Below are positions 8,414 to 34,058 of a stretch of DNA of 41,231 nucleotides, one piece after another (positions within the stretch are counted from its first letter, which is position 1; every line of letters starts with the position of its first letter). The translations under genes were made by a program, and so were the position numbers. The notes under the pieces were generated by a model. It was not told where the DNA came from. It ran no database searches and saw nothing but the letters and a program-made list of their open reading frames with translations. This stretch comes from Gemmatimonadales bacterium (GTDB lineage Bacteria; Gemmatimonadota; Gemmatimonadetes; Gemmatimonadales; GWC2-71-9), in NCBI GenBank assembly GCA_035249405.1, contig DATFGN010000037.1:1-41231 (forward strand), given 5' to 3'.

Positions 8414-8421
8414 CGGCGGGC

Positions 8422-8712
8422 TCAGGGTAAGAACCAATCCCTCGCCAGATCTCGCCATTCTGGATTCATCGAGCGAATCAAGGCGAGCTTCTTCCATCGC
8501 GACCATCTCTTGATCTGCTTCTCACGGGCGATTGCCGCCCGTACTTCGCTGAACGACTCATAGTAGACGAGTCGCGCAATGTTGTATTGTTTGGTGAACC
8601 CGTTGTGGACTTTGGAACGATGCTCATAAGTGCGTCGTTGCAAGTTGTTCGTGACCCCCGTGTAGAGCGCGCGATAGCGACTGGAAAGAATGTAGACGAA
8701 GTAGGTTTTCAC
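8422..8712 (-). CDS. GIY-YIG nuclease family protein (UPF0213-like, stand-alone)
   Basis: MKTYFVYILSSRYRALYTGVTNNLQRRTYEH carries the GIY/YIG-type motifs. The conserved R and E context (AIAREKQIKRW) follows. The 96-aa size is typical of stand-alone members. Confidence 0.9.
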   Translation of the reverse strand: MKTYFVYILSSRYRALYTGVTNNLQRRTYEHRSKVHNGFTKQYNIARLVYYESFSEVRAAIAREKQIKRWSRWKKLALIRSMNPEWRDLARDWFLP

Positions 8713-8753
8713 GAGGATCGATGCCAGAATGGGGCACGATCCTCAACTATCTT

Positions 8754-9140: not shown

Positions 9141-9212
9141 GGACGGTCCTTGGTGGGGAATACAGCAATGATGAGCGAGGCAGGCTGACCGTTGCGCGAG
9201 GGTGACTGCTTG

Positions 9213-9803: not shown

Positions 9804-9832
9804 GCGGGCTACATTGGCTCAGGTTCGGTCCA

Positions 9833-12247
9833 ATGTCCACTACCTTGCCGCGCTGCCTCCTCGTTCTCTTCGTCCTCGTGGGCGACGCCGCCGCTCAGGC
9901 GCCTCCCCCCGTCGCCCGGCGCGACACGCAACACATCTCCGCCCTGCTCACCATCAGCGGCGGCATCAGCCTCGGCTCCTACGAAGCCGGAGTGAACTGG
10001 GGGCTGCTCGAGGTCTTCAAGCTCACCGCCCGCGATTCGCTGCGCCGCGCCTGGAACCTGCCGCGCTACGAATTGAAAGCCATGGCGGGAGCCTCGGCCG
10101 GCAACATCAACGGCTTCCTCGCTGCCCTCGAATGGTGCCGCACCCGGGAGCCCGTCGCTCCCGAACAGAGTCTTCTGTGGAAGATCTGGGTGCGCACCGG
10201 ATTCGATCAGCTGTTCCCCCTCGAACGCTACAACCAGCCCGACTCGACCCAGGCGCTGTTCAGCCGGCGCTACTTCCAACGGGTGTTATTCGATACCGTG
10301 CGCGCCGCGATGCGCGACCTGCCTTCATCGGATGCCCTGGACGGCTGCAACATTCCCGTCGGCGTCACCATCACCAAGCTCACGCCCGGCGAGATCTCGA
10401 TCTCGCGCGGCATCACGGCGGTGACGCAACGTTTCGCGACGGTGGTGGTGGTGAATCGGCAGGGCAATGCGGTCCGGTTCCGGGCGCCGCCCGGCGAGCT
10501 GATCGGCAACAGCCGGCTCGGCGCGCTGCTGTTGTTACCGGATTGCGAGGGTGCCATCGAGCCCAACGACGTCTTCTCGCTGATCGAAGCGTCGTCAGCG
10601 TTTCCCGGTGCCTTCTCGCCGGTCTCCCTGCGCCACCAGTCGCGGCCGGGGACAGGATGCGGCTCCGCGCCCCCCTTGGGCGATAGTGCGCTGTTCTCCG
10701 ACGGCGGCCTGTTCGACAACAATCCCATCGACCTCGTGGCGGGGATCTATACCGACGCGATCTGGATGAACCGCGAGCGACCCGACCCCAACGCCCTGCT
10801 CGTATTCATCGACCCCGAAGCGCTGCGCGGCCGGCTCGCGCGGGTCGAGAAGCAACGGGCGCAGCCGGCCACCGGTGGCATCTCCGCACTGATGGACCTG
10901 TTCGCGGGCGCCGTGCCCGCCGCCAGGCAGTACGAGCTGCAGGCCTTCGGGCGGCTCCTCGCCCGGGCTCCCCAGGTATTCCAACGGGACAATATCGACG
11001 TCACCAATCGCCGCTTCGTCGTCGTCGGGCAACAGTTGGGCGCGTTCGCCGCGTTCCTGGGGCAGCCGTTTCGCGAATACGACTTCTATGTCGGCGTCTA
11101 CGATGCCCTCGCTTTCATCGCCCGCGAAGGCTGCCGCACGACCCAGGGCGTGGATTCGACCTGCCAGGCCGGCCGGTTGCAAACCCTCGTGGAAACGTCG
11201 CAACTCAACCTCGGCGCAAGCAGTTTCCCGCGCGAAATGCTCCGCGAGCTGTATCAGCGTGAGTACGCCGACAGCACCGCGAAGCCCGACAGTCACCGCG
11301 ACGTACTGCTCCGTCCATTACTGCTCCGTGCTCTGTTAGACGCTCACCTCGCCCAGGACCAGGAGAAACCGTTCGACAACGCGATCTGTCGCGGCGACGC
11401 CGTCAGTCGTCTCCTCTGCCGCGATGGCTTTCGCGACATCCTGGGTCGCGTCGCAGCCGATTCGGCGATTCACGCCCTCATCGACTCGGCCCGGCGACAA
11501 CCGCGCCCCGAGTGCGAGCCCGAGAATTGGCTCGAGTCGCCGGCCCGGTGTGACGCGACTACGAGCTTCCTGGCGTTCGTCGACAATCCCGAACGGTTCA
11601 TGGCCAGCCAGATCGGCCTCATGCTGCACCAGCTGTGGCGGGTCGAGCAGGCCCGCCGGCAGGCCGGGGTGACGGCGTGGACCAATGTCGCGACCCTGAG
11701 CGAGGCCCTGTACCAGTCGGGCATCGGGTATCGCTACCGCCGCGGCTTCGACGCCAACACCTCGTCTGTGCCGAGGGGGTCGGGACGAGGCTGGATCGCG
11801 ACGCTCGTTCCCAACTACGCGACGGTCAGTCTCCTGAGCTCTGGGTTCGAGATCGGGTACCGGCCCACTGTGCACCTCGGCCGATCGCTCGCTCTTGGCC
11901 TGACCGCTTCGCCACTCCACGTGACCGGCCACCCCGCCACGCAAGTCGACCGGGTGCACTGGGTGATGGGACCGGCGCTGCACTGGAAGCGCTCCACCGC
12001 CATCTGGTCCGGGCTGGAAACCGGGGTCGAGTACTTCGGGCACTGGCGTCGCCGCCCGGCCGGGAGTTCCAATGCCACGGTTTGGGCGGTGCCCGTCACC
12101 GCCTACCTGCTCGCCGACAAGCTGCGCATCGGCGTGCGCCTGCTGCCCGGCAACAATTCCGCTATACACGGCGGCAAGAAGATCGCGCTGACCTTGGGGC
12201 TCTCGGACCTGAATGGGCTGGTGTACTGGATGCTGCGGAGGTCGTGA
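9833..12247 (+). CDS. patatin-like phospholipase family protein with signal peptide and long C-terminal extension
   Basis: Start taken at ATG 9833 (MSTTLPRCLLVLFVLVGDAAAQA); the longest ORF starts at 9776. Motifs are the oxyanion-hole-like SGGISLGSYEAG, the GxSxG nucleophile elbow GASAGNING, and the catalytic Asp context FSDGGLFDNNPID. About 450 further residues follow, and the last ~170 are beta-strand-like. Confidence 0.9.
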   Translation: MSTTLPRCLLVLFVLVGDAAAQAPPPVARRDTQHISALLTISGGISLGSYEAGVNWGLLEVFKLTARDSLRRAWNLPRYELKAMAGASAGNINGFLAALEWCRTREPVAPEQSLLWKIWVRTGFDQLFPLERYNQPDSTQALFSRRYFQRVLFDTVRAAMRDLPSSDALDGCNIPVGVTITKLTPGEISISRGITAVTQRFATVVVVNRQGNAVRFRAPPGELIGNSRLGALLLLPDCEGAIEPNDVFSLIEASSAFPGAFSPVSLRHQSRPGTGCGSAPPLGDSALFSDGGLFDNNPIDLVAGIYTDAIWMNRERPDPNALLVFIDPEALRGRLARVEKQRAQPATGGISALMDLFAGAVPAARQYELQAFGRLLARAPQVFQRDNIDVTNRRFVVVGQQLGAFAAFLGQPFREYDFYVGVYDALAFIAREGCRTTQGVDSTCQAGRLQTLVETSQLNLGASSFPREMLRELYQREYADSTAKPDSHRDVLLRPLLLRALLDAHLAQDQEKPFDNAICRGDAVSRLLCRDGFRDILGRVAADSAIHALIDSARRQPRPECEPENWLESPARCDATTSFLAFVDNPERFMASQIGLMLHQLWRVEQARRQAGVTAWTNVATLSEALYQSGIGYRYRRGFDANTSSVPRGSGRGWIATLVPNYATVSLLSSGFEIGYRPTVHLGRSLALGLTASPLHVTGHPATQVDRVHWVMGPALHWKRSTAIWSGLETGVEYFGHWRRRPAGSSNATVWAVPVTAYLLADKLRIGVRLLPGNNSAIHGGKKIALTLGLSDLNGLVYWMLRRS

Positions 12248-12336
12248 CGAGCCGGCCGACAGCCCTTCCTGTTCATGAGACATGAAACCGACCAGATTCA
12301 CTTGAAGCTCGTCCGTCACCGAACCCCAGGGGATTC

Positions 12337-12612
12337 ATGGATCAGGATCAATTGCACCAGCGCCTGGCTCAGCTCCACGCTGAGCTCATCGCCGCCAAGC
12401 CGGTCGATGTCGAGACCCGCGACCGCCTGGAAGTGCTCGCCCGGGACATCCGCGCCGTGCTCGATGCGAACCCGAAACCGGCGTCGGTTGAGCCGTATCA
12501 GGCCGTGGGGACCAAACTGAAGGAAGCCGTCGCCGGCTTCGAGGCCTCACATCCCCAATTGAGCAAGACGATCGAGAACGTGATCGAGACGCTGTCGCTG
12601 TACAATCTCTGA
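12337..12612 (+). CDS. DUF4404 family protein
   Basis: The 91-aa product reads QLHQRLAQLHAEL...VDVETRDRLEVLARDIRAVL...LKEAVAGFEASHPQLSKTIENVIETL, matching the DUF4404 pattern as I recall it. GGGGA lies 4 nt upstream of the ATG. Confidence 0.75.
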   Translation: MDQDQLHQRLAQLHAELIAAKPVDVETRDRLEVLARDIRAVLDANPKPASVEPYQAVGTKLKEAVAGFEASHPQLSKTIENVIETLSLYNL

Positions 12613-12692
12613 CCTGCTCGCCCCCTCGCAGCTATGACGGATGCGCTCACCAGTCCTACCCAGTCGGCTCGAGATCGGAGTTGCCTGCCAGG

Positions 12693-12818
12693 CTGCGCAT
12701 CGGCGTTCGCGTGCTCCCCGGCAACAATTCCGCCGTACACGGCGGCAAGAGGATCGCGCTCACGTTGGGGCTCTCGGACCTGAACGGGCTGGTCTACTGG
12801 ATGTTGCGGAAGTCGTGA
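12693..12818 (+). pseudogene. displaced copy of the last 41 codons plus stop of a patatin-like gene (no start, no upstream ORF)
   Basis: 12692-12824 aligns without gaps to 12121-12253, the 3' end of the patatin gene, at about 90% identity. In frame it reads LRIGVRVLPGNNSAVHGGKRIALTLGLSDLNGLVYWMLRKS*, against LRIGVRLLPGNNSAIHGGKKIALTLGLSDLNGLVYWMLRRS* in the intact gene. Confidence 0.8.
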
Positions 12819-14260: not shown

Positions 14261-14593
14261 ATGTCCGGCTGGTTCGAGCTGAAGCCCGCAGTAGGCGGTC
14301 AGTTCATGTTCAATCTCAAAGCAGGGAACGGGAAGGTCATCTTGACGAGCGAGCTGTACAAGGCGAAGCAAAGCGCGAAAAAGGGTATCACCTCGGTCAA
14401 GAACAACTCCCCCAACGATGGTCGCTACGATCGTCAGACCGCGAGCAATGGCGAGAAGTACTTCGAGCTCAAGGCTGGCAGCGGTGAATCCGTGGGGATC
14501 AGCGAGCTGTACACCGGCCCGTCTGGTATGGAGAAGGGCATCGCCGCCGTGAAGAAGGCGGCACCCGGTGGAACGATCAAAGACCGTACATAG
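14261..14593 (+). CDS. YegP family protein (two DUF1508 repeats)
   Basis: Strong SD GGAGAGGAGG lies upstream of the ATG. Two repeats are present: FELKPAVGGQFMFNLKAGNGKVILTSELYKAKQSAKKGITSV and YFELKAGSGESVGISELYTGPSGMEKGIAAV. Confidence 0.9.
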   Translation: MSGWFELKPAVGGQFMFNLKAGNGKVILTSELYKAKQSAKKGITSVKNNSPNDGRYDRQTASNGEKYFELKAGSGESVGISELYTGPSGMEKGIAAVKKAAPGGTIKDRT

Positions 14594-14687: not shown

Positions 14688-17006
14688 TTAGCGCGCAGAC
14701 TCCGAGAACCCGATCCGTCGGTAGACCTGCTGCATCCGCGGATCGCTTTGCAACAACTGGAACGCGGGATAGCGCTTACAATAGATGAGAATGCTGTCGC
14801 GGTCCTCACAGGCCCGCTCGAGCAGCTGGAACGCTTCATCCATGCGACCCACCAAGCCTGCCGCTAGTGCCAACGTCGCACTCTGGATGTACTCGCGCCG
14901 TGCGCGAGCTGTGAGCTCCTCATATATGGCCACCACCTCGGCGCTCTTTCCCAACACGCGGAAGCAAGCCGCTAACGCCGCGAGCGTCGAGGGATGACGG
15001 CCCGATGCCGCCGCCGCCACTTCCAAGGCGGCCATCGCTTCCTCGGTCCGGCCGAGTTGATTGTAGACCACGCCCAGATGGAGATAGGTGAGGAGCATCG
15101 CCGGGCCGAGCTCGGTGGCCCGCTTGAGCGGCGTGAGCGCCTCCTCATAGCGCCCGGCGCCGATCAGCACGCCGGCGAGCTGCGTCACCGGCAACTGCGC
15201 CAGCGGATCGAGCTCCACGGCGCGCCGGGCGTGCATCAGTGCTTCGTCAAAGCGGCCCTCGACCAGGCAGAGATACAACGCGAGCCGGTAATGGGCGGCG
15301 ACGTAGCGCGGACTCAGCTCGATGGCCCGGCGCAGCTCGCGCTCGGCTCCGGGCCACTCCCAGTCGAAGACGAACTTCAGCTCCCCGAGGGCACAATGCG
15401 CCTCCGCCAGATCGGGAGCCAGCTCGAGGGCCCGCTCGATCGCCGCCCGGACTTGGGGCAGGGTCTTGGTGGGCGGGACCATGCCGTACTCCGTCAGCAG
15501 CGTGTAGGCATCAGCCAGGCCCGCATACGCCAGGGCGTAGTTCGGATCGAGTGCCAGCGCCCGGCTGAAACATTCCACGGCCTGCTTCAGCCCCAGGCCC
15601 CGCTGCGCCCAGAAATACCGCCCCTTCAGATAGAGATGGTAGGCGTCCAGATTCGCGGTGGCCGGCGTGACCACCGCCGAGCCGGCACCACGGGTGACCT
15701 GCAGCCGCTCGGCGATCGCTCTCCCGATCTCGTCCTGGATCGCGAAAACGTCCGTCATTTCGCGATCGTAGCGCTCCGACCAGAGATGGTAACCGTCGGC
15801 GACTTTGATGAGCTGGGCCGTGACCCGGAGTTTGCTGCCCGCCTTCCGCACGCTGCCTTCCAGGACGTTGGCGACCTTCAGTCTGGTCCCGACCTCGGCT
15901 AGATCGATTGCCTTGCCGCGGAAACAGAATGACGACGTCCGCGACGCCACGTGCAGCCCGGGGAGCTGGGCGAGCGCGTTGATGATTTCCTCGGTGATCC
16001 CGTCGCTGAAGTACTCGGTGTCGGGATCCGTACTCATGTTGGCAAATGGCAGGACGGCGATGGAGTCCTCGTCGACGTCGTCCGCCTCCGTCTCGTCGTG
16101 GGCCACGAGCGCCGCCGCGAACTGAATTGGGGTCGCAAAGCGATCCGCCGGCGCTTTCTCGAGTGCCCGCAGAATTGCCCGTTCGACGCCGACGGGGACT
16201 GTCGCCCGAACCGCGCGCAGCGGCGGCACGGGCTCGAGCAGCTGGCGGGCGAGAACGGTCTGTGCCGACTTGCCCAGGAACGGCGGCTCGCCCGCGAGCA
16301 TCTCGTACAACACGCACGCTAGGCTATAGGTGTCGCTGCGGCCGTCGATTGGGAGGTCCGTCTCGGACTGTTCCGGGCTCATGTAACCCGGCGTTCCGAT
16401 CCGGACCCGTGTGCCCGTCAATTGGTCGCCTCCGGCCGTCGAAATCGCCCGCGCGATGCCGAAGTCGCTGACCACCGCGTGCCCCGCTTGAAACAGGATG
16501 TTTTCCGGCTTGATGTCGCGGTGCACGACATCGTGGCTATGGGCATAGCTCAAGGCGTCGGCCACCTGGCGGGTGATCTCAAGGGCGTCGCTCAACGGGA
16601 GCTGCTTCTCGCGCTCGAGGCGCCCCCGTAACGTGTCACCCTCCACATACGGCATCACGTAGTACAGGTAGTCGTCGGCCTTGCCCGAGTCGTGCAGCGC
16701 CAGGATGTGAGGATGGTTCAGCCGGGCGGCGGTCTCGATCTCGCGGAGAAACCGCTCCGTGCCGATCTGTGCGGCGAGCTCGGGCAGCAAAACCTTGATG
16801 GCGACCGGGCGACGGTGCTTCAGGTCCTGCGCCAGATACACGGTGGCCATTCCACCGCGGCCGAGCTCACGCTCGACCGTGTAACGGTCTGCGAGGGCTG
16901 CGTGGAGGGAAGCGCGAAGATCGGGCGTATTCGCTCGTGAGTAGCGACGACCGAACTTACGGGCTCTGGTTAGGCACCGCCAGTTTGGATGGTATACACC
17001 GCCCAC
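14688..17006 (-). CDS. Ser/Thr protein kinase with TolB-N-like domain and C-terminal TPR repeats
   Basis: GTG 17006 is the only in-frame start upstream of the kinase domain. Kinase motifs are GRGGMATVYLA, VAIKVL, HRDIKPENI, DFG and MSPEQ. The middle block IAVLPFANMS...YFSDGITEEII...LEGSVRKAGSKLRVTAQLI is TolB-N-like. The C-terminal part has many TPR-like A/L/Y helices. Confidence 0.9.
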   Translation of the reverse strand: MGGVYHPNWRCLTRARKFGRRYSRANTPDLRASLHAALADRYTVERELGRGGMATVYLAQDLKHRRPVAIKVLLPELAAQIGTERFLREIETAARLNHPHILALHDSGKADDYLYYVMPYVEGDTLRGRLEREKQLPLSDALEITRQVADALSYAHSHDVVHRDIKPENILFQAGHAVVSDFGIARAISTAGGDQLTGTRVRIGTPGYMSPEQSETDLPIDGRSDTYSLACVLYEMLAGEPPFLGKSAQTVLARQLLEPVPPLRAVRATVPVGVERAILRALEKAPADRFATPIQFAAALVAHDETEADDVDEDSIAVLPFANMSTDPDTEYFSDGITEEIINALAQLPGLHVASRTSSFCFRGKAIDLAEVGTRLKVANVLEGSVRKAGSKLRVTAQLIKVADGYHLWSERYDREMTDVFAIQDEIGRAIAERLQVTRGAGSAVVTPATANLDAYHLYLKGRYFWAQRGLGLKQAVECFSRALALDPNYALAYAGLADAYTLLTEYGMVPPTKTLPQVRAAIERALELAPDLAEAHCALGELKFVFDWEWPGAERELRRAIELSPRYVAAHYRLALYLCLVEGRFDEALMHARRAVELDPLAQLPVTQLAGVLIGAGRYEEALTPLKRATELGPAMLLTYLHLGVVYNQLGRTEEAMAALEVAAAASGRHPSTLAALAACFRVLGKSAEVVAIYEELTARARREYIQSATLALAAGLVGRMDEAFQLLERACEDRDSILIYCKRYPAFQLLQSDPRMQQVYRRIGFSESAR

Positions 17007-17662: not shown

Positions 17663-17764
17663 AGGCCTTCATCATTTCGCCCAACGCCCTCACCGACCCG
17701 CTCCTTGTGCGAGCCGGTGCCGGCGGGCAACTTGCCATGCCGCGATGCACCCGTTCCCCTCGCG

Positions 17765-19966
17765 ATGATCGATCTGCAGGAGCTCCGCGCCGCGCTCGCG
17801 CCGGACTACGTCATCGAGCGCGAGCTGGGCCGCGGCGGCATGGCCACCGTGTACCTCGCCCACGAAAGCAAGCACGATCGGCGCGTCGCCATCAAAGTGA
17901 TGCGCCAGGAGATCACCGCTGAGCTCGGCGACGATCGGTTCCTGCGCGAGATCCGCATCGCGGCCCGGCTCTCTCACCCGAACATCGTGCCGCTGCTGGC
18001 TTCGGGAGCAGCGGACTCGGCCCTCTACTATATCATGCCGTTCATCGAGGGGGATTCGCTGCGCGCTCGCCTGGACCGCGAGGGCCGCCTTTCCATCCCC
18101 GCGACGATCCGCATCGCCCGGCAGGTCGCCGCCGCCCTCACCTACGCCCACGCACAAGGTGTGGTGCACCGCGACATCAAGCCGGAAAACATCATGCTCA
18201 CGGGCGACGCCGCCGTGGTCGCCGATTTCGGCATCGCGACGGCCCTCCAGGAGGCGGGCTCGCCCCGGCTCACCCAGACCGGCGTGAGTATCGGCACTCC
18301 GATCTACATGAGCCCCGAGCAGACGACCGGAACCGTGGATGGCCGCAGCGACGTGTACTCACTCGCCTGTGTCGTGTTCGAGATGCTCACCAGTCAACCC
18401 CCGTTCACCGGACCGACTGCGCTGGCGATCATGATGCGGCACGCCACCGAGCCGGTGCCCTCGCTGCAGTCGATTCGCTCGGAAGTCCCGGTCGGCATGG
18501 GGCGGGCACTCGGCCGAGCCCTGAGCAAGATGCCGGCCGATCGGTTCGCCACGCCGGACGAGTTCGTCGCGGCGCTCGAATCGCCGGACGCGACGCACGC
18601 GCCGCCCAGCCCGAACACCGTGGACTCGATCGCGGTCCTGCCCTTCAAAGACCTGAGCCGCGAGCAGGACCAGGCGTATCTCTGCGAAGGGATCGCCGAG
18701 GAGCTGCGCGATGCCCTCATGCGAATGGGCTCGCTGCGCGTCGCTTCGCGACACCTGGACGTGCGCGAGGGCGGGCGGCGACTGGACGTGCGCAGCATCC
18801 TCGAGGGGAGCGTGCGGGTGGCCGGCGACCGGCTCCGCATCTCCGTCACGCTCTCGAGCGTCGAGACCGGCTTCCAGCTCTGGAGCGAGCGCTACGACGA
18901 GGCGATGACCGATGTGTTTCAGGTCCAGGACGACATCGCCCGGCGCGTCGTGGCTCGGCTGCTCCCCGACGCTGACCGCGGCGGCGCCCCGGTCGTCGCA
19001 CCCGGCACCGCCGATCTCGAGGCGTATCGGGCGTACCTGCGGGGCCGCCATTTCGCGCAGCGCCGTACCGCAGCAGATCTAGAGAAAGCGATCGAGTCTT
19101 ATGAAGCCGCGCTGGCCCGCGAGCCCGGCTTCGCGCTTGCCGCCGCCGGCCTGGCGGATACCTGGTTCGTCCTGCCGGTCTACGGGGCGCTGGCACCCGA
19201 TGCCGCGATGCCCAAAGCCAAAGGAGCGATTGAGCGTGCCATGACGCCGGGCCGGGAGAGCGCCGAGGCGCTGGCCGTCCTGGGGTCGATCCGCGCCGTC
19301 TACGAGTGGGACTGGGCCGGCGCGGAGACCGATTTCCGGCGCGCCCTTTCGCTCAGCCCCGGGAATCCGATGGTCCTGCATCGCTACGCGGTGAACTGCC
19401 TGCTGCCGCTCGGACGTTTCGCCGAGGGGCTCGCACGCCTGGAAGAGGCGCTGGAGCGCGACCCCATGTCGCTGCTCGCGGCTACGAGCCTCGGGCTGGT
19501 GCACTACCTCGAACGACGGACGGCCGCGGCCGTGTCGGCCTACCACGGCGTGCTCGAGCTCGATCCCGGTTTCGGGCTGGCGCGCTATCTCCTGGGCGTG
19601 GCGCTGTTGGAAACCGCGACACCCGCCGACGCCGTACCCGTACTCGAAGCCGCCTGCGCCGCAGGACGCAGCGCCGAGTCCGTCGCCGCTCTTGCTGTCG
19701 CCTTCGCGACGGTCGAGCGCACTGAAGACGCCGAACGACTACTCGCAGAGCTCGAGGGTCTGGCGACCACGCGCTACGTGTCACCGGTATTGCTTGCCCA
19801 AGCCCAGTTGGCGCTGCGACGGCCGGAGTTGGCATTGGATCAGCTGGAGCGCGCTTGCGAGCGGCGCGCCTCGGAGCTGGCGTGGCTCGCCGTCCGCCCG
19901 ACCTGGGCTCCGCTGCGCGGCGCTCCCCGATTCCAGGATCTGCTGCGTCGCGTGAAACTCGCGTGA
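17765..19966 (+). CDS. Ser/Thr protein kinase with TolB-N-like domain and TPR repeats (paralog of 14688..17006)
   Basis: Start taken at ATG 17765 (MIDLQELRAALAPDYVIERELGRGGMATVYLA); the longest ORF starts at 17705. Motifs are HRDIKPENI, DFG and MSPEQ. The TolB-N-like block is IAVLPFKDLS...LEGSVRVAGDRLRISVTL. The C-terminus has TPR-like repeats. Confidence 0.9.
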   Translation: MIDLQELRAALAPDYVIERELGRGGMATVYLAHESKHDRRVAIKVMRQEITAELGDDRFLREIRIAARLSHPNIVPLLASGAADSALYYIMPFIEGDSLRARLDREGRLSIPATIRIARQVAAALTYAHAQGVVHRDIKPENIMLTGDAAVVADFGIATALQEAGSPRLTQTGVSIGTPIYMSPEQTTGTVDGRSDVYSLACVVFEMLTSQPPFTGPTALAIMMRHATEPVPSLQSIRSEVPVGMGRALGRALSKMPADRFATPDEFVAALESPDATHAPPSPNTVDSIAVLPFKDLSREQDQAYLCEGIAEELRDALMRMGSLRVASRHLDVREGGRRLDVRSILEGSVRVAGDRLRISVTLSSVETGFQLWSERYDEAMTDVFQVQDDIARRVVARLLPDADRGGAPVVAPGTADLEAYRAYLRGRHFAQRRTAADLEKAIESYEAALAREPGFALAAAGLADTWFVLPVYGALAPDAAMPKAKGAIERAMTPGRESAEALAVLGSIRAVYEWDWAGAETDFRRALSLSPGNPMVLHRYAVNCLLPLGRFAEGLARLEEALERDPMSLLAATSLGLVHYLERRTAAAVSAYHGVLELDPGFGLARYLLGVALLETATPADAVPVLEAACAAGRSAESVAALAVAFATVERTEDAERLLAELEGLATTRYVSPVLLAQAQLALRRPELALDQLERACERRASELAWLAVRPTWAPLRGAPRFQDLLRRVKLA

Positions 19967-21081
19967 GACCCGACGTGGAACTGCGGCGACGCCTGGCGAC
20001 GGACCGCCGCGCTATCGCACAGTCATGGGGCTGCGGAAGGCCTCTCGGTCGGGTGCTCGAGGTGCGGAGCGGGCTCTCGGATCCACATGACGGCGGGCGC
20101 ACCGTCGCGGTCGTACGCTTCGCATCGGGATTGCGCGTCGTCTACAAGCCGCGCCCGGTGGGACTGGAAGCCGCGTTCCATCGCTTGGTGGCCTGGTGGA
20201 ACGAGCGGGCGGGCCCCGTCGCGGTATTCGCGCCAGACGTAGTGGACCGAGGCACTTACGGGTGGATGGAGTTCGTGACGCATGAGGCGTGCATCGATCA
20301 TGAAGCGGCGAGTCGCTATTGGGAGCGCGCTGGGGCGTTGATCGCACTCGCCGACCTGCTTGACGCTACCGACCTGCATCACGGCAACGTCATTGCCCAC
20401 GGGGAATACCCGGTGCTCGTCGATCTCGAAACGCTGCTCCAGCCGCGTCGGCCGCGCGCAGCGCGTTCGCTTCTGAGCACTGGGCTCGTGCCGGCCTGGA
20501 TCCGTGGCCCCGATGGGGGCAGCTACGACGTGAGCGGCTTCGGTGCCATCGCCCCACAGCGATACAAGGGAGCCACGGTCCCAGTGCGCGAGAATGTGGT
20601 TCGGGTCGGAACGGATATCGTCTCAGCTGCCGAGTTTGCCGATCAGATGGAGGCGGGATTTCTTCGCGCGGGAGCGCTGCTGTGCGAGCGGCTGCCGGAG
20701 TTACTCACCCAGTTGCAAGAGTTTCGCGGGCTCGAAGTCCGCGTGATGCTGCGACACACCGAGACCTACCGCGCGGCGATGGAGGACGAGAGTGCGCTTG
20801 GAAGGATGACCGCGGCCGAGCGCGCGGCACTGCGGCGTGGCGACATCCCGCGCTTCGTCGCCTCGACCGATGCGAGCTATGAAGCCTTGATCGCGCGGGT
20901 CAATCGGCTCGATCCGGCGCGCTACGAGGAGCAGGCTCGGCTGCTCAGGACGGCGCTGGTGTTATGGGGTCTGGGTGGCGCGCTGCTTGTGCAGCAGCAC
21001 CATGAAGATGAGGTCAAAAATGGCGGTACCCACGAAAAGAAACAGGACAAACGCGCGCATGCTGGGAGCATTCTCTTGTAG
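19963..21081 (+). CDS. stand-alone DUF4135 (LanM-type lanthipeptide dehydratase/kinase-like) domain protein, no LanC domain
   Basis: GTG 19963 overlaps the kinase stop (GTGA); the ORF is open from 19855. Blocks appear in LanM order: SGLSDPHDGGRTVAVVRFASGLRVVYKPRP, GWMEFV, TDLHHGNVIAHGEYPVLVDLETL, RVMLRHTETY and RRGDIPRF. The last 120 nt overlap the convergent terpene-cyclase gene. Confidence 0.7.
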   Translation: MRPDVELRRRLATDRRAIAQSWGCGRPLGRVLEVRSGLSDPHDGGRTVAVVRFASGLRVVYKPRPVGLEAAFHRLVAWWNERAGPVAVFAPDVVDRGTYGWMEFVTHEACIDHEAASRYWERAGALIALADLLDATDLHHGNVIAHGEYPVLVDLETLLQPRRPRAARSLLSTGLVPAWIRGPDGGSYDVSGFGAIAPQRYKGATVPVRENVVRVGTDIVSAAEFADQMEAGFLRAGALLCERLPELLTQLQEFRGLEVRVMLRHTETYRAAMEDESALGRMTAAERAALRRGDIPRFVASTDASYEALIARVNRLDPARYEEQARLLRTALVLWGLGGALLVQQHHEDEVKNGGTHEKKQDKRAHAGSILL

Positions 21082-21681
21082 CAGAAAGATGTTCGCGAGG
21101 AAGATCACGCAGTTCCCGCTCACGCGGAACCAGGATGCCCCCCAGCCGAGCCCGTGCAGGTCGGGTCGGGCGAACAAAAAGAAGATGAAGAGCAGGCTCA
21201 TCACGAAATTGATGATCAGCCCGCTCAAGGGAGCGGCCGCGTCGGGGTAGAATTGCGCGAACGCGAAGTTGCCCGCCGCGGCGAGCACCAGAGCTCCCAC
21301 CAGCACGAACGGGTAATACTGCCGGATCTGGGCGAACGCCTGCTCGGCACGACCGTAGCGGAACAACTGCCAGACGATGAAGGCATCGAGTGCCACCCAC
21401 GCCAGAATCATGGCGACTTTCACCACATCCACAGTACCGTTGTCGCAGCGCGGCGGCTGCACCAGGCTGTACTGCAGCTCCCAGGTGAAGTTCATCACGA
21501 TGGCGACCAGCGGGAGGCCGTAGGTGCGCTGTCGGAAGCACCGACGGATAATCAGAACGTAGGCGATCGCCCAGCACAGGTCCCCGAAGACCGTGAGGTT
21601 GAGCCAGAAACCATTGTCCAGCAGGTGGTGGGGGAAATCCCCGCGGGGGATTTCCACCACCGCCGCGTGACAAGGGTTCAA
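20962..21681 (-). CDS. Pyr4/PaxB-like transmembrane terpene cyclase (7 TM)
   Basis: About 7 hydrophobic helices are visible. The block RQRTYGLPLVAIVMNFTWELQYS matches my recollection of the conserved (K/R)xRTYGM..x..N(I/F)(A/T)WE(I/F)xY block of fungal Pyr4/PaxB-type cyclases, and the size fits (239 aa). The TTG start at 21681 overlaps the stop of the upstream peptide ORF (TTGA). GTG at 21660 or 21657 are alternative starts. Confidence 0.7.
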   Translation of the reverse strand: MNPCHAAVVEIPRGDFPHHLLDNGFWLNLTVFGDLCWAIAYVLIIRRCFRQRTYGLPLVAIVMNFTWELQYSLVQPPRCDNGTVDVVKVAMILAWVALDAFIVWQLFRYGRAEQAFAQIRQYYPFVLVGALVLAAAGNFAFAQFYPDAAAPLSGLIINFVMSLLFIFFLFARPDLHGLGWGASWFRVSGNCVIFLANIFLLQENAPSMRAFVLFLFVGTAIFDLIFMVLLHKQRATQTP

Positions 21682-21884
21682 GTCGAGATGCCCGCCGCGG
21701 TCCTATAGTGCCCGTTCACCTTTTCCAGGGCTTTCCAGTTGAGTGACTTCAGCGAGCGCTCGAGTTTCGGAGTCGCCTTGACTCCGGCGGCCTTGAGTGC
21801 CTTGGCGGGGCTTCTCTTGAGTTGCGTCCGAAACTTCTTGTTCTTCATCGCCTTGCGGACCAGCTCGTCGAATTTCATCGCCAT
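21678..21884 (-). CDS. 68-aa Lys-rich small protein with NHLP/Nif11-like leader region (candidate RiPP precursor)
   Basis: ATG 21884 is preceded by GGAGGA with a 7-nt spacer. The sequence is MAMKFDELVRKAMKNKKFRTQLKRSPAKALKAAGVKATPKLERSLKSLNWKALEKVNGHYRTAAGIST. Residues ~5-42 resemble the NHLP leader consensus as I recall it (..IIAKAWKDxxFKQELLxNPKAALxKEFGVKLPEG..). The ORF-track version (21995) is an N-terminal over-extension. Confidence 0.6.
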   Translation of the reverse strand: MAMKFDELVRKAMKNKKFRTQLKRSPAKALKAAGVKATPKLERSLKSLNWKALEKVNGHYRTAAGIST

Positions 21885-21972: not shown

Positions 21973-22884
21973 TCATGACGGCCATACGTCGGCAAGGGTC
22001 GCGAGCGTGCGGTAGCCCGGAATCAACTGTTCCGCCCGCTCCGCGAGCACGGCTCGCTCGGTGTCCAGATGCCGCACGAGCTCCAGGCCGCCCAGCGCCC
22101 GGGCGTCGTCGGCCAGCACCTCATACCAGGATTCGATCGACGCGACTCCCCAGGCGAATCCTTCTCGCAGGATCCAGGCAGTGGCCGGCTCCTTCCGCTT
22201 CCGCCGTCGCTTGGCCTCGGACAGGAAATAGGTCGTTCGCCCCTGATCCTCCAGGTCATCCTGCCAGTCGAAGACATCGTCCGTCATCTGGGCGATGGCG
22301 CCGAGCCGGTCACACAAGGCGAGCCGGGCGGGAAGGGCGTCGGGTTTCCCGTGGCGCAAACACGTCGCGACGATGGGGATCTTCGCGGGGCTGACCTTCA
22401 GCGCGGCGACGCGCTGGAACTGCTCGAGTGTGACGGTCTTGAGTCGCGCGTCCATGACGGTCGCTTCCACCGCGCCGAACCAGAGGTTGGGGAACCACTC
22501 CCAGAAGGGGTGCTCTGGCTCGAAGTACTTGGCGTACGCCTGCTGGAACTCCGCATGGAAGAACCCGGCCGCCGGCAATAGTGAGGGGTCGGCATTGGGA
22601 TCCGTGTCCATGACGTCGTCCAACAAACGAATGTGGCAGTAGCCCGTGATGGTCGAATAGGTCAGATCGTCGTAGAAGGCGTCATCGGCTTTCGCGCCCA
22701 AGGTCTTACCCACCCATTCGGGAAGCGTGAGGATGGGCAGGGTGCGCCGCTGCCGGAAATATTCGGCGGGATCGTCGGTCGGTGACAGGCGCTCGAGCCA
22801 CGCGAACACGCGCTCGCTCAGCTGCGGCGTGGCCCGGAGCCGAGCCTTCATGCGTGCGAACGCCGTGTCGATCCGGGTGGTCAT
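21973..22884 (-). CDS. squalene/phytoene-synthase-like (isoprenoid synthase fold) enzyme; possible prenyltransferase
   Basis: ATG 22884 overlaps the stop of the upstream STAND gene (ATGA). Two Asp-rich motifs are spaced as in the SQS/PSY family: YCHIRLLDDVMDTD (compare FCRxxDDxVD) and AQMTDDVFDWQDDLEDQGRTTYF (compare FQLTNIxRDxxEDxxxGRxYLP). The ORF-track start at 22971 lies inside the upstream gene. Confidence 0.7.
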   Translation of the reverse strand: MTTRIDTAFARMKARLRATPQLSERVFAWLERLSPTDDPAEYFRQRRTLPILTLPEWVGKTLGAKADDAFYDDLTYSTITGYCHIRLLDDVMDTDPNADPSLLPAAGFFHAEFQQAYAKYFEPEHPFWEWFPNLWFGAVEATVMDARLKTVTLEQFQRVAALKVSPAKIPIVATCLRHGKPDALPARLALCDRLGAIAQMTDDVFDWQDDLEDQGRTTYFLSEAKRRRKRKEPATAWILREGFAWGVASIESWYEVLADDARALGGLELVRHLDTERAVLAERAEQLIPGYRTLATLADVWPS

Positions 22885-25800
22885 GAGGCGCGTGGCGCCA
22901 GGAGTTGTTGGGCGAGGGCCGCGGGGTAAGGCATTGCCAATTGCTCGCCCAGCTCGATCGCAGCGCGCCACGCCGCCGTGGCCGCTTCATGCTTTCCCGC
23001 CAGCTGCTTCGCTCGTCCGCGCATGAGCGCGAGCCAGGGCCGCGCAATCGGGAACACTCGGGCGAGGCGGCGCAGCGCCCCCAAAGCAGCGCGCAGTGCG
23101 CGAGCCCGGGCGGCGCCGCCCGCGCCTGCTTGACCGCCTGGTTGCTCCAGCAGCTGGAGCAGCACGTCGGCTGTCCCGGACGCATCGAACACGTAGCCAT
23201 GGTAGGACGGCATGAGCTTCTCGAGCAACGCTGCGGCCTCGAGGGCGGCCCGTTCAGCGCCCGCCGCATCACCGGCGCGCAGCTGTGTGAGCGCCCGCAC
23301 GGTTCGCATGGGGAGATCACCGTGTACCGTCCCGACGTTCCAGCGGATCCCGGCCAACTCCTCCGTCGCGGTCGCGGCTTCGGCGTCCCGACCGAGCATG
23401 AGGAGGCAATGCACCCGACGGTATACAGCGCTCGCCTGTCCCCGCGGATCGTTGCGCCGCGTCGCCGAGCGATACAACTGGCCCGCGAGGTCGAGACTGG
23501 TCTCAAAACGCCCCTGGAGGAAATGGAGATCGACGAGAAACTGAGTGCCGTCGTCCCAGCGGCGCGCGTCGCCCAGGCGCTCGCTTTCCCTGGTGACGAG
23601 ATCGAACAGGGCCCGCGCTTCACCCCAGGCGGCGACGCCGAGTTTGTACGCGCCCACGCTGAGCGCGGTCCAGATCGTGGCGGGGACGTCACCCGAGGCA
23701 CGGGCGGTCTCGAGCGCGCGGCGGCAGTACGCGTCGGCCTGTTTCGACAGCGGGATGAAGCCGAGGATCGCGCCCACGGTGGCATACCCGCGCGCCAGCT
23801 CCGGGGACGGGCCCGCCAGTTCGGCGAGATTGAGGCCGCACATCGCGCTGTGGAGGCAGGCGAGGTTCGCATCGCGCAGGTAGAACACTTCGACCAGCGC
23901 TTCGTGCGCCTGAGCCGCACTGAGCAAGACGTCGCGCTCCGCGTCGCGCCGCCCGACAAAACGCCGCGGCAGCAGCCGGTGCATCATCTGGCGAGCGGCC
24001 TGGCCGGCCAGTCCGCCCACGAGCCTCGCGCTGCCGCGCGGCATCGGCTCGCCGGCGAGGGCCAGGCCACGACGCAGATGCGCCTCGCCGTCTTCGTAGC
24101 GGGACCAGTTCACGCAGGCCCGGCCCGCCTGCAGCTCCCAGCGCCGCCGCTGGCTCGGTGTGGCGTCGGGGGAGAGCGCGAGGGCGTCGCGGAACAAGCC
24201 GACGGCCTCCGCGTTCGCGTAGCTCCGGAAGGCCTGCTCTCCCGCCCGATCCAGATAGTGGACCGCTTTGGGAATCACCTCGGCTCGCCGCCAATGGAAG
24301 GCGAGCAGCGGCAGGACCGGCTCGAGATCCGCTCCGTGCCGCGCCTCGAGCCAGGCGCCGAGGGCCCGGTGCAGGTCACGCCGTTGCGCGTACAAGATGA
24401 GATCGTAGGCGACCTGCTGCGTGATGGCGTGGCGGAAGGAGTAGCGGGAATCGACGCCGGCCACCTCGGCGTGAATGAGGTCCAGTCGCTCGACCGCCGC
24501 GAGTGAGGCCGCGAGCTCCGCGTCGCTCGTCGAAACGGGGAACACGTCGCGCAGCATCGCGACGGGGAAGGTTCGTCCGATCACACTGGCCACCTTGACC
24601 ACGAACTGCTCCGACTGACTCAACCGGTCGATGCGACTGGTGACGATTCCCTGGAGCGTCTGCGGGAGACCGCGAGCGGCCAGAGCGTCGCCGAACGCGG
24701 GAGCCAGCTCGCGGGAGGGATCGGTCAGCTCGCAGCGGCCGTCCGTGACCTTGATCAGCCCATAGTCCCGCAGCGCGTACACGAGCTCTTCGCTGAAAAA
24801 CGGGTTGCCCGCGGCCCGGTCGTGGACCAGGGCCAGGACCTGCTCAGGGACGGCGCGCACGCCGAGACGGTCCGCGAGCAACCGGTCCACCACTTCGGGT
24901 CCGAGCGGTGCAAGCCGCAGCCGTCGCTCACCCGCGAGCCCCGCGAGCGCCACGAAGTCGGCGGGCGGGTCGTCGATGGGACGGCTCGTTACCACAAAGA
25001 GCAGGGTCGGGATGGTGCGGGTGGCGGCGAGCAGGAGCGCCCACGAGGACGAGTCGAGCCACTGGGCATCCTCGATCGTCACGACGACCGGACCGGTGTC
25101 TCCCAAGTGGGTCAAGGCGGCGAGCAGCAGGTTGCGGACGTTCGCGGCGCGCACCTCGTCGGTCATGGCGGCAATGAGGTCGTTGCCGTCGAGCTTCAGG
25201 CCGAACAGGGGCCCGAGCAGGGGCACCATGGGGGCCTGTTCCGCTCGCAAGCCCAGGCGAGTGGAGAGGAGTGCGGCGTCGGCGCCGGCGCCGGCGAGCG
25301 ATCGCAGGGGGCGGATCCAGGCGTGGTAGGCCGTCCCCTTCTCGATGTCGTCTGCCGCGCCGTCGATCACTCGCGCGCCACGTCGGGTCGCGCTGGCCCG
25401 GAGATACTCGACCAGCCGCGACTTCCCGATGCCCGGTTCGCCCTCGATCAGGATGACGCCCCCTTCGCGCCGGGTGACCAGGGCTTCGACGGCGCTGTCG
25501 AGCGCCGCGCACTCCCGCTCGCGGCCGCGCAGTCGCCCGTCGTCGTCGCCCGCCCGGGTCGGCGATGGGGCGCCCTGCTCAGCGGACGGCCGATGGACGA
25601 CGACCGGTTGCTCGCGCCCTTTGACGCGGATCGGCGCGAGGGGGGTGAAGCGCAGCGCCGGATGGCGGCGCGCCTGCTCCTCAGTCACCGCATCGCAGAG
25701 CACCGACCCGGCGGCGTGTTGCATCAGTCGCGCGGCCAGGTTCACGGGTGCGCCGGCCACGGTGTATTGCCGGCGGCTGGCCGTACCGTAGACACCGCAA

Positions 25801-26930
25801 TAGAGGAGGCCAGTGGCTGTCCCGACTGAGGGAGTGAGCTCCTGACGCTGCAGCGCGTCATGCATCGCGAGTGCGGCGAGCGTGCCCCGCGCGGCGTCGT
25901 CCTCGTGGGCGCGGGGAGGCAGACCGAAGGCGGCGACGAGAGTCGTGCCTTTGTCGTCGGTGAGGAGCTGATAGACGCTGCCCTCGAAACGCGCTACGAC
26001 TTCCTGCAGCGCCGCCACGGCGCCCTGGATCTTGCTCAAGGCGTCGGGCCGCCGCGGGGTATCGATCGCGCCGAGGCCGCAGAACACCATCGTGACACGG
26101 CGAAACTCGCCGAGCCACTCGCCCAGCCCGGCGTCGACGCGAGCCGCGATGACTTCGGGGACGAGTCGGCGCAGCTCGTCGATGCGGTCGGAAGTGAGCG
26201 CCGGCCGGTGCGGCGCGATGTCCGTGACCCGCGTCAGGACGCGGGCGAGCCGGAGCGCGTTGCCCTCGAGCGGTGTTCCCTGGGCGCGCGACCCCAGCAG
26301 GGCGGCCGCTTCAGGCGAGACGACGACCTCGCCTTCATGTGCCAGCCGGTCGGCGGCGGTGGCCTGCGCGATAGGCGCGCCTTGCGCGAGGGACAGCCAG
26401 CGTCCGGCCAGGCCGCCGAGGCGCAGGTGGGCGATCGGCCCCGCACCGATCGTGATTCGCATCCGCAACGCCCCGGTCGCGGGCGGATCGGCGGCCTCCT
26501 GGAGGCGCAGGCCGCACGCGGCCGCGGCCGTGACGGCAGCCACGAGGTCTCCGCCGTCATCATCGAGCCAGGCAACGAGCGCGGCGTCGCCCGCGAAGGC
26601 GAGAATGTCGCCCCCTCGGGCGAGCACGATGTCAGTGAGCCGGCCGAAGTGCGCGTCGATGATACGCGAGAGCTCTTCAGCACCTCTCGGCCCCTGGACG
26701 CTCAAGCGTTCCGCTAGGGCAGTGAAACCGGCGAGGTCGGCGAAGAGGATGGCGGCGGGGTGGACTTCCATGTGGGGGCCGGGCGGATGGCCGGAGGGCG
26801 CGGCTACGTCGCGCAGCGCGAGCGCCGGCAGGTAACTGGCGAGCGCCGCGACGCCCGGTGTCACATCGCCGCTGGAGCTCGGTGGCATCGTAGGGCGCAA
26901 GCATAACGTGCGATGCGAAAGGGCCGCCAC
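22881..26930 (-). CDS. STAND-type signalling protein: two class III adenylate/guanylate cyclase-like domains + AAA_16 P-loop NTPase + TPR-like C-terminus
   Basis: The first cyclase-like domain has AAILFADLAGFTALAE...FAGDAALVAW. The second has VTMVFCGLGAI...LLTDDKGTTLVAAFG...YTVAGAPVNLAARL. Walker A is EGEPGIGKSRL and Walker B-like is VVVTIEDAQWLDSSS. About 600 aa of helical TPR-like repeats follow. The start is GTG 26930, with ATG 26891 as an alternative. Confidence 0.9.
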   Translation of the reverse strand: MAALSHRTLCLRPTMPPSSSGDVTPGVAALASYLPALALRDVAAPSGHPPGPHMEVHPAAILFADLAGFTALAERLSVQGPRGAEELSRIIDAHFGRLTDIVLARGGDILAFAGDAALVAWLDDDGGDLVAAVTAAAACGLRLQEAADPPATGALRMRITIGAGPIAHLRLGGLAGRWLSLAQGAPIAQATAADRLAHEGEVVVSPEAAALLGSRAQGTPLEGNALRLARVLTRVTDIAPHRPALTSDRIDELRRLVPEVIAARVDAGLGEWLGEFRRVTMVFCGLGAIDTPRRPDALSKIQGAVAALQEVVARFEGSVYQLLTDDKGTTLVAAFGLPPRAHEDDAARGTLAALAMHDALQRQELTPSVGTATGLLYCGVYGTASRRQYTVAGAPVNLAARLMQHAAGSVLCDAVTEEQARRHPALRFTPLAPIRVKGREQPVVVHRPSAEQGAPSPTRAGDDDGRLRGRERECAALDSAVEALVTRREGGVILIEGEPGIGKSRLVEYLRASATRRGARVIDGAADDIEKGTAYHAWIRPLRSLAGAGADAALLSTRLGLRAEQAPMVPLLGPLFGLKLDGNDLIAAMTDEVRAANVRNLLLAALTHLGDTGPVVVTIEDAQWLDSSSWALLLAATRTIPTLLFVVTSRPIDDPPADFVALAGLAGERRLRLAPLGPEVVDRLLADRLGVRAVPEQVLALVHDRAAGNPFFSEELVYALRDYGLIKVTDGRCELTDPSRELAPAFGDALAARGLPQTLQGIVTSRIDRLSQSEQFVVKVASVIGRTFPVAMLRDVFPVSTSDAELAASLAAVERLDLIHAEVAGVDSRYSFRHAITQQVAYDLILYAQRRDLHRALGAWLEARHGADLEPVLPLLAFHWRRAEVIPKAVHYLDRAGEQAFRSYANAEAVGLFRDALALSPDATPSQRRRWELQAGRACVNWSRYEDGEAHLRRGLALAGEPMPRGSARLVGGLAGQAARQMMHRLLPRRFVGRRDAERDVLLSAAQAHEALVEVFYLRDANLACLHSAMCGLNLAELAGPSPELARGYATVGAILGFIPLSKQADAYCRRALETARASGDVPATIWTALSVGAYKLGVAAWGEARALFDLVTRESERLGDARRWDDGTQFLVDLHFLQGRFETSLDLAGQLYRSATRRNDPRGQASAVYRRVHCLLMLGRDAEAATATEELAGIRWNVGTVHGDLPMRTVRALTQLRAGDAAGAERAALEAAALLEKLMPSYHGYVFDASGTADVLLQLLEQPGGQAGAGGAARARALRAALGALRRLARVFPIARPWLALMRGRAKQLAGKHEAATAAWRAAIELGEQLAMPYPAALAQQLLAPRAS

Positions 26931-34054: not shown

Positions 34055-34058
34055 GTGG

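Follow-up and report, generated by a model that had tools for sequence, protein, structure and literature searches.

The stretch of DNA analysed here (the window: 41,231 nt, positions 1 to 41,231 of contig DATFGN010000037.1 from the Gemmatimonadales bacterium assembly GCA_035249405.1) contains an open reading frame (ORF) whose only Pfam match is PF13575, or DUF4135, the dehydratase domain of LanM class II lanthipeptide synthetases (E-value 6e-77, 259.8 bits against a cutoff of 29, profile positions 21–325 of 378). The same scan revealed no match to PF05147 (LANC_like) in this protein. The translation includes the LanM core blocks SDPHDGGRTV, VYKPRP, GWMEFV, TDLHHGNVIAHGEYPVLVDLETL, RVMLRHTETY, and GDIPRF in this order. 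Profile alignments placed the protein on residues ~218–633 of CylM and residues 166–592 of LicM2; thus, it has neither the N-terminal ~215 residues nor the LanC domain of these enzymes. The capping-helix region, which comprises residues 5–131 and 180–200 of CylM (PMC4550811), is absent according to the alignment to CylM. Against the NCBIfam LanM family TIGR03897 the protein scored 251.8, below the cutoff of 304, and its best stretch covered model positions 113–322 of 932. Judged from these family models, the protein is a PF13575 member and not a LanM in the family sense. A tblastn search of the 41-kb window with the LanC domains of 9 full-length LanMs returned chance-level matches only.

The GTG start codon of the ORF (19963–19965) overlaps the TGA stop codon (19964–19966) of the upstream gene, which encodes a Hanks-type Ser/Thr kinase with TPR repeats, in the sequence GTGA. 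The stored gene call (P0001) is 368 residues long, which would put the start four codons further downstream, probably at GTG 19975; the relatives of the gene begin at the position homologous to 19963, with the identical 4-nt overlap with the kinase gene. At its other end the ORF converges on the gene of a Pyr4-like transmembrane terpene cyclase. The last ~39 codons (from about 20962) are antisense to the 3′ end of that gene, and the overlap amounts to 120 nt in the window (20962–21081) and to 111–138 nt in relatives. In this tail, the proportions of nonsynonymous and synonymous differences (pN and pS) are about equal, residues 340–368 are predicted to be disordered in the AlphaFold model, and the tail is missing where the neighbouring gene differs (L004 and P0041). 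The charged and conserved tail (VQQHHEDEVE...) was considered as a functional extension, and this was rejected because its codons are antisense to those for the hydrophobic C-terminus of the Pyr4-like protein, evolve with pN ~ pS, and encode a stretch predicted to be disordered; it looks as though the frame reads on across hydrophobic codons in antisense. The two operons may be subject to antisense transcriptional interference. The original prediction, which was made from the letters alone, had named the ordered blocks, the two missing regions, and the GTGA overlap, and the Pfam scan, the alignments, and the coordinates agree with it on each.

LanM dehydratases have a lipid-kinase-like fold; they use ATP to phosphorylate a Ser or Thr hydroxyl and then eliminate the phosphate, which leaves a dehydroamino acid. 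Mutagenesis of CylM revealed that K274, D347, H349, N352, and D364 are required for phosphorylation, and that D252, H254, R506, and T512 are required for phosphate elimination (PMC4550811). In alignments to CylM (5dzt) and LicM2 (6st5), the former residues correspond to K62, D137, H139, N142, and D154 of the DUF4135 protein and the latter to D40, H42, R260, and T266, that is to say, all 9 residues are conserved. These predicted catalytic positions are invariant or nearly so in alignments of 20 and of 45 sequences, with Thr or Ser at position 266. The catalytic loop reads HHGN, whereas most LanMs have HxEN. The glycine is found in 44 of 44 window-family members; at the same position, the full-length LanMs sampled have Gly in 11 of 127 cases (~9%), Gln in 6, and Asp in 3. 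The CylM structure paper is silent on the loop Glu, Glu351 (PMC4550811). The Glu-to-Gly change was weighed as a sign of inactivation and was rejected because it is a trait of the whole family and recurs in full-length LanMs; the HHGN loop pointed out in the original prediction is thus real, but it is no sign of lost function.

The AlphaFold model of the protein (mean predicted local distance difference test score, pLDDT, 85.5; predicted template-modelling score 0.85) superposes in Foldseek on LicM2 with a template-modelling (TM) score of 0.72 and a root-mean-square deviation of 3.6 Å, and on CylM with a TM score of 0.68. After the LanMs, the nearest structures are the phosphoinositide kinases PI4K and VPS34. 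The sequence identity is 23% to LicM2 and about 9% to PI4K. Over codons 1–333, the ratio of nonsynonymous to synonymous substitution rates (dN/dS) against 7 orthologues ranged from 0.15 to 0.37, which indicates purifying selection. LanM dehydratase domains that have been excised, and so lack the cyclase domain, are active (PMC4550811; PMC10676384).

A search of 5.8 billion proteins revealed ~45 short relatives of 370–430 residues with identities of 45–90%. Members of this short family were found in Gemmatimonadota, and the few that carry organism names are Gemmatimonadales. A profile search of 1.84 billion representatives returned 8,664 DUF4135 proteins, among which the window family comprised one representative and one fragment (680 bits; the next match scored 311 bits). 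Those LanC-less proteins for which a genomic context was available formed one clade with three parts in a neighbour-joining tree without bootstrap: (i) the window family; (ii) proteins of 500–553 residues with an N-terminal extension of ~110–150 residues (P0113, P0119, P0170, P0171, and L013); and (iii) a sister part with proteins of 476–550 residues (P0046 and relatives). The remaining short DUF4135 matches are scattered among full-length LanMs and are probably contig-end fragments. No full-length LanM was found at this locus in any relative examined. The alignments of two metagenomic proteins, the DUF4135 relative P0035 and the Pyr4 relative P0295, contain local stretches that look frameshifted, which could be assembly errors or occasional decay in a lineage.

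The genes around the DUF4135 gene are collected in Table 1 together with features of related loci and of the rest of the window.

Table 1. Features of the window and of related loci; positions are those of the window or of the respective locus.
Sequence	Feature	Position	Strand	Size and evidence
Window	Stand-alone LanM-type dehydratase domain (DUF4135)	19963–21081	+	372 aa from GTG at 19963; PF13575
Window	Hanks-type Ser/Thr kinase with TPR repeats	17705–19966	+	753 aa; Pkinase E-value 3.5e-48, TPR families
Window	Pyr4-like transmembrane terpene cyclase	20962–21681	−	239 aa; PF25129
Window	Precursor peptide (NHLP clan/Frankia_peptide/Os1348-like)	21678–21884	−	68 aa
Window	p303, orphan protein with trans-isoprenyl diphosphate synthase fold	21973–22884	−	303 aa; AlphaFold/Foldseek
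Window	STAND protein	22881–26930	−	1349 aa; AAA_16 E-value 6e-22, Guanylate_cyc E-value 1e-10
Window	Thermolysin-family (M4) metallopeptidase	26972–28009	+	345 aa; Peptidase_M4 E-value 1e-28, M4_C E-value 2e-41
L004	FAD_binding_3 monooxygenase between DUF4135 and Pyr4	9182–10318		
L013	FAD_binding_3 monooxygenase between DUF4135 and Pyr4	1264–2700		
L144	FAD_binding_3 monooxygenase between DUF4135 and Pyr4	3324–4490		
L145	FAD_binding_3 monooxygenase between DUF4135 and Pyr4	8649–9809		
L087	Sister cluster	6791–11723		72-aa Frankia-type peptide, p303 homologue, 482-aa LanC-less DUF4135, kinase/TPR
L085	STAND and p303 homologue	3976–10834		With 625-aa B12-binding radical SAM protein
L086	STAND and p303 homologue	3965–12745		With 552-aa cyclic-nucleotide-monophosphate-binding protein, 66-aa Frankia-type peptide, 589-aa protein without Pfam match
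Window	Hanks-type kinase	913–2868	+	
Window	Hanks-type kinase with TPR repeats	14688–17006	−	
Window	Large protein	4140–6332	+	RCC1-like repeats, bacterial Ig-like domains
Window	Large protein, adjacent to the preceding	6329–8413	+	RCC1-like repeats
Window	Protein with patatin-like phospholipase domain	9776–12247	+	823 aa
Window	ORF with internal two-fold repeat	14261–14593	+	110 aa; F.L.A.NG..I..SE.Y....KGI..VK
Window	Strong AT-skew outlier	34001–35000		AT skew +0.37
Window	Amino-acid permease	34059–35447	−	

The kinase/TPR protein has the HRD, DFG, and VAIK motifs. On the opposite strand, two pairs of genes are coupled, as read directly from the sequence: the STAND stop codon and the p303 start codon share ATGA, and the peptide stop codon and the TTG start codon of the Pyr4-like gene share TTGA. 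The peptide gene lies 600 bp from the DUF4135 gene, and a Shine-Dalgarno sequence, GGAGGA, stands 7 nt upstream of its start. In the STAND protein, nucleotide cyclase homology domains are joined to an AAA_16 domain and to a helical region at the C-terminus; the protein matches positions 280–916 of TIGR03903 (TOMM kinase/cyclase fusion) without the N-terminal kinase domain of that family. The separate kinase gene and the STAND gene look like a split version of this fusion, a recurrent one in NHLP/TOMM clusters. The window has two more genes for Hanks-type kinases (Table 1); the minus-strand one matches the DUF4135-coupled gene in its kinase and TPR composition, and these two are divergently transcribed. 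Because Hanks kinases are abundant in the window, kinase adjacency alone is weak evidence for a functional connection; the conserved 4-nt coupling supports the link.

The cluster was also considered as an anti-phage defence system. This was rejected, since PADLOC gave generic matches to kinase and cyclase domains only and none to DUF4135, p303, the Pyr4-like protein, or the M4 peptidase. Elsewhere in the window, the AT-skew outlier coincides with the amino-acid permease gene, which is consistent with T-rich hydrophobic codons.

The precursor peptide has a conserved leader of ~45 residues, a Trp at position 50, and the C-terminus ...HYRTAAGIST, and it has no Cys. It scored 39.9 bits against NF038399 (Os1348-family NHLP clan), of which the cutoff is 40, and 17.8 bits (E-value 0.004) against PF14407 (Frankia_peptide), of which the cutoff is 48; for the orthologues in L004, L086, and L144, matches to PF14407 are precomputed. 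Its leader family is a recognised precursor family of peptides that are made on the ribosome and modified after translation (RiPPs) and is related to the Nif11, NHLP, and ComX leaders. A search of the 41-kb window for a second precursor with the peptide hidden Markov model returned chance-level matches only. The orthologous peptides are 66–68 residues long, with a conserved leader and a divergent C-terminal core; the core of the L087 peptide is rich in Ser, Thr, and Pro. Twelve unique orthologues and the L145 peptide end in [IV]-S-[T/C], the L144 peptide ends in A-S-C, and Trp50 is invariant in all of these Pyr4-associated peptides. The absence of Cys, on which the original prediction had remarked, is true of the window peptide, but in four related loci the orthologues end in Ser-Cys.

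For p303, no significant match was found in Pfam, NCBIfam, or a PDB sequence search, the best being a geranyltranstransferase with an E-value of 0.75, and none of its ~56 homologues carries a functional annotation. Structure prediction was the only way in which p303 could be placed. The AlphaFold model (pLDDT 93.9) has the fold of a trans-isoprenyl diphosphate synthase (IDS), and Foldseek matched it to the geranylgeranyl diphosphate synthase 1wmw (TM score 0.66), to octaprenyl and farnesyl diphosphate synthases, and to the prenyltransferases Ord1 and MoeN5. Both Asp-rich motifs, DDVMD in IRLLDDVMD and DDVFD in QMTDDVFDWQDD, are invariant, and the invariant residues include D89, D93, Q199, D203, W207, and D210. 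Gln199, which lies upstream of the second motif, may or may not set p303 apart from ordinary IDS enzymes. Judged from the modelled fold, p303 is a candidate peptide prenyltransferase. The Pyr4-like protein matches PF25129 at profile positions 22–222 of 227 (E-value 2.3e-22, 80.2 bits against a cutoff of 27). Its acidic residues E68 and D223 are invariant and probably lie close to where Pyr4 has its catalytic Glu and Asp.

The genomic context was compared across loci from one genome per species (185,579 species) and from JGI metagenomes; the short fragments L007 and L092 were left out when neighbours were judged, and the partial locus L146 was left out for the peptide. All loci with at least 40% identity and enough flanking sequence carry the Pyr4-like transmembrane terpene cyclase, the peptide, and p303, and the STAND gene is present wherever the contig reaches it. 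The Pyr4-like gene is found in all close loci and also in L144 and L145. The peptide gene accompanies the LanC-less clade in every locus where the region is covered. By contrast, ~115 loci with 25–47% identity in the best segment encode full-length LanMs (~1,000–1,100 residues) or contig-end fragments and do not have these neighbours. The M4 peptidase and the kinase are usual in the cluster and not universal. The former is found in the same position in L003, L004/L009, L005, and L006. The latter adjoins the DUF4135 gene in L001, L003, L005, L006, L089, L094, L095, and L145 and lies downstream of it in L087, and in L004 a methyltransferase gene and in L144 an S8 peptidase gene stand in its place. 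The translational coupling to the kinase gene that had been predicted is thus real and conserved, without being a fixed property of the cluster; the short architecture had likewise to be looked for in homologues, and it is common to the ~45 relatives; the kinase neighbour is present in most loci.

The deeper LanC-less relatives P0113 (L144) and P0119 (L145) have the same cluster with an additional FAD_binding_3 monooxygenase, as do L004 and L013, and in L146 (P0170) the monooxygenase and a Pyr4 fragment precede the contig end. The monooxygenase is present exactly where the peptide has Ser-Cys at its C-terminus; in the comparison with the window (over its whole length) and 10 other loci, it is absent where Ser-Thr stands there instead. 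This suggests a link of the monooxygenase step with the terminal residue or with an epoxide-initiated cyclisation. The match was not counted as strong evidence because the loci with Thr and no monooxygenase are one subclade and thus represent one evolutionary event. The sister group (L087 and L088) retains the peptide, a p303 homologue (35% identity, E-value 3e-44), the DUF4135 protein, and the kinase/TPR protein, and has neither Pyr4 nor STAND. The pair of p303 and STAND also occurs without DUF4135 (L085 and L086), with the p303 homologue translationally coupled after the STAND gene; this pair of a STAND protein and an IDS-fold protein may be the core of a wider, undescribed family of peptide-modification systems. 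The context of a distant Pyr4 homologue, P0297, was uninformative.

Domain identity, an intact catalytic set, purifying selection, the fold, and strict gene co-occurrence together argue that the DUF4135 gene encodes a functional, minimal LanM dehydratase, naturally LanC-less, that tailors the 68-residue peptide of a conserved Gemmatimonadota cluster, a reading to which we give a probability of roughly 60%. The original prediction had put forward a minimal phosphorylation/elimination enzyme acting on the nearby peptide; this is the best-supported of its proposals in view of the co-occurrence with the peptide, the C-terminal Ser followed by Thr or Cys, and the equivalents of R506 and T512, and it is still something that we infer. 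Beyond that prediction, the peptide belongs to a conserved peptide-isoprenoid cluster, together with p303, the Pyr4-type cyclase, the STAND protein, and the M4 peptidase.

From substrate and modified site to product, the pathway would most likely run as follows. The IDS-fold protein p303 would take a prenyl chain from its diphosphate and attach it to the peptide, where Trp50 would be the favoured acceptor by analogy with ComQ, PalQ, and ChrPC; the characterised peptide prenyltransferases of the trans-IDS type all target Trp (PMC13290415). The Pyr4-type membrane cyclase would then cyclise the peptide-borne chain, which in the deeper relatives the FAD monooxygenase would probably epoxidise beforehand. 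The DUF4135 protein would dehydrate the invariant Ser at position −2, the terminal Thr, or both, to dehydroalanine (Dha) or dehydrobutyrine (Dhb) through phosphorylation and elimination. Because the window peptide has no Cys, no lanthionine would be formed from it. The M4 metallopeptidase, a candidate leader peptidase, would cleave off the leader, and the kinase/TPR and STAND proteins would most likely be regulatory or scaffolding partners.

Several points weigh against a minimal dehydratase that acts on this peptide. The DUF4135 protein has no recognised leader-binding element. In its alignment, the capping helices that hold the kinase-activation domain of CylM are absent, and activity or substrate binding may need a partner. 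The L086 and L087 peptides have no Trp, yet they are accompanied by p303 homologues; the prenyl acceptor and the division of labour between p303 and DUF4135 are uncertain for this reason. The DUF4135 gene belongs to the kinase operon, which runs on the strand opposite to the peptide operon. Its chemistry, as proposed, is read from sequence and modelled fold, and a kinase-only role or a non-peptide substrate is conceivable.

A kinase-only enzyme would phosphorylate Ser or Thr of the peptide without elimination, and the phosphoester would then be the last modification, or else another enzyme would use it as a handle or leaving group, for example through recognition by the diphosphate-binding IDS-fold protein or through substitution by a nucleophile. 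The fold, which is that of a lipid or protein kinase, the loss of the capping helices that in CylM support the activation domain bearing the elimination residues, the loop Gly throughout the family, and the tight and ancient pairing with p303, whose fold binds diphosphates, would all fit such a role. We consider it unlikely, given that the residues specific to elimination (R260, T/S266, D40, and H42) are kept under selection and that the loop Gly also occurs in full-length LanMs. The conservation of these residues, for which a simple kinase has no need, also speaks against a small-molecule or lipid kinase that would phosphorylate an isoprenoid alcohol or a terpenoid hydroxyl, for instance to make or recycle a prenyl donor, instead of the peptide. 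Such an enzyme would be in keeping with PI4K and VPS34 as the nearest structures after the LanMs, with a cluster rich in isoprenoid enzymes, and with the lack of a detectable element for leader recognition; the similarity is far higher to peptide-modifying LanMs (23% to LicM2 versus about 9% to PI4K), and the sister cluster L087 has DUF4135, p303, and the peptide but no terpene cyclase, so that we regard this alternative as rather improbable.

A role as a regulatory or scaffolding partner of the pair of Hanks kinase and STAND protein, in which DUF4135 would act on signalling proteins and not on the precursor peptide, appears more doubtful again. The DUF4135 gene is translationally coupled to the kinase/TPR gene in most loci, and kinase-cyclase-STAND fusions recur, unexplained, in NHLP/TOMM clusters (TIGR03903), but it is retained in L004 and L144, where a methyltransferase and an S8 peptidase, respectively, take the place of the kinase, its complete catalytic set for dehydration is conserved, and it tracks the peptide and p303 instead of STAND, which is not found near L087. 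That the gene is a decaying remnant of a full-length LanM gene, the second proposal of the original prediction, is hardly credible and can be regarded as refuted: although about 60% of a LanM is missing and the last ~39 codons run into the antisense of the neighbour with pN ~ pS and no predicted structure, the short form is kept in ~45 relatives and the wider LanC-less clade under the dN/dS of 0.15–0.37, the catalytic residues are intact, the fold is compact and confidently predicted, and no relative has a full-length LanM at the locus. A frameshifted full-length LanM was rejected separately, because no LanM-like sequence flanks the ORF, the kinase/TPR gene upstream and the Pyr4-like gene downstream are complete, and the boundaries are the same in relatives.

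The chemistry may well turn out less ordinary than the conservative model supposes. As a speculative extension, which we would not expect to hold, LanC-less DUF4135 and p303 might form an obligate pair for a new coupling of peptide and isoprenoid through a C-terminal Dha/Dhb or phospho-Ser/Thr, followed by cyclisation by the Pyr4-type enzyme. In that case, the dehydro or phospho residue may act as the partner that supplies the alkene or leaving group for prenyl transfer by p303, in effect imitating isopentenyl diphosphate on the peptide itself; the Pyr4-type cyclase may build a polycyclic terpenoid on the backbone, and the M4 peptidase may possibly release a small terpenoid-amino-acid product. 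If true, this would be a new RiPP class with a dehydratase-plus-IDS core in place of Trp prenylation.

If the minimal dehydratase is active, its ~330 structured residues would be the minimal unit for ATP-dependent dehydration of Ser and Thr, and the question would become how the substrate is recognised without the usual leader-binding parts; both points would be useful for engineering. The cluster comes from the phylum Gemmatimonadota, of whose secondary metabolism very little has been characterised. The first report of ribosomal peptides bearing cyclised isoprenoids dates from 2024 and concerned different enzymes (Hubrich et al. 2024, as cited in PMC13290415), and the Gemmatimonadota cluster would, if the proposed steps are true, represent an independent route to them.

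In the literature searched, neither a natural stand-alone DUF4135 protein of ~370 residues nor this combination of genes was found, and a prior description is not fully excluded, Hubrich et al. 2024 being known via a review. With the LanMs CylM, LicM2, LctM, and ProcM, the window protein has in common the homologous PF13575 domain, the lipid-kinase-like fold, and the 9 catalytic residues, and the ProcM-type LanMs also use a leader of the NHLP/Nif11-related clan. It differs from them by having no LanC domain and no N-terminal ~215 residues (the capping helices and part of the CylM N-lobe), by its score below the TIGR03897 cutoff, by HxGN in place of HxEN, and by the Cys-free precursor; the gene neighbourhood shares nothing with lanthipeptide clusters.

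Among published non-canonical enzymes, CcaM (LanMbC) of the dehydrazoles (carnazolamide) comes nearest; it has ~1015 residues, needs its Zn-less class III cyclase domain for activity, and works together with YcaO/azole chemistry; the dehydrazole study excluded sequences under 500 residues (PMC10676384). Both would be DUF4135 dehydratases of hybrid RiPP pathways whose dehydroamino acids are not converted to lanthionine, which for the window enzyme is proposed. By contrast, the window enzyme has 372 residues and no cyclase domain of any kind, and it sits with isoprenoid enzymes; no YcaO gene was found in its neighbourhood. The Os1348 cluster of Pseudomonas sp. Os17 (PMC7726476) resembles the window in a metallopeptidase nearby and probably in its precursor, which is of the NF038399 family, for which the window peptide is at the cutoff, and of the Frankia_peptide family. 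Its tailoring genes encode a GNAT acetyltransferase, a HEXXH peptidase, and a SagB-type dehydrogenase, and include no DUF4135 protein, IDS-fold protein, or terpene cyclase (PMC7726476).

On the isoprenoid side, ChrPC and NctPC cyclise prenyl groups on RiPPs, as they are presented in PMC13290415. These enzymes, ComQ/ComX, and PalQ resemble the window cluster in having a LigA-like/NHLP-type leader, a prenyltransferase of the trans-IDS fold (in the window, a candidate), a terpene cyclase, and a core Trp. In the window, the cyclase is a separate integral membrane protein of the Pyr4 type, whereas that of ChrPC and NctPC is a fused soluble MstE-like domain. Unlike ChrPC/NctPC, ComQ, and PalQ, p303 belongs to an orphan family, the cluster adds a LanM-type dehydratase, a STAND protein, and a Hanks kinase, and the clusters related to the window include Trp-free peptides. 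Fungal meroterpenoid and indole-diterpene pathways proceed from a prenyltransferase through an FAD epoxidase to a Pyr4/PaxB-type membrane cyclase. The adjacent genes of an IDS-fold protein, an FAD_binding_3 monooxygenase, and a Pyr4-like transmembrane terpene cyclase in L004, L013, L144, and L145 are reminiscent of this logic; here, however, the setting is bacterial, the window subclade has lost the monooxygenase, and the scaffold would be a ribosomal peptide instead of a polyketide or an indole.

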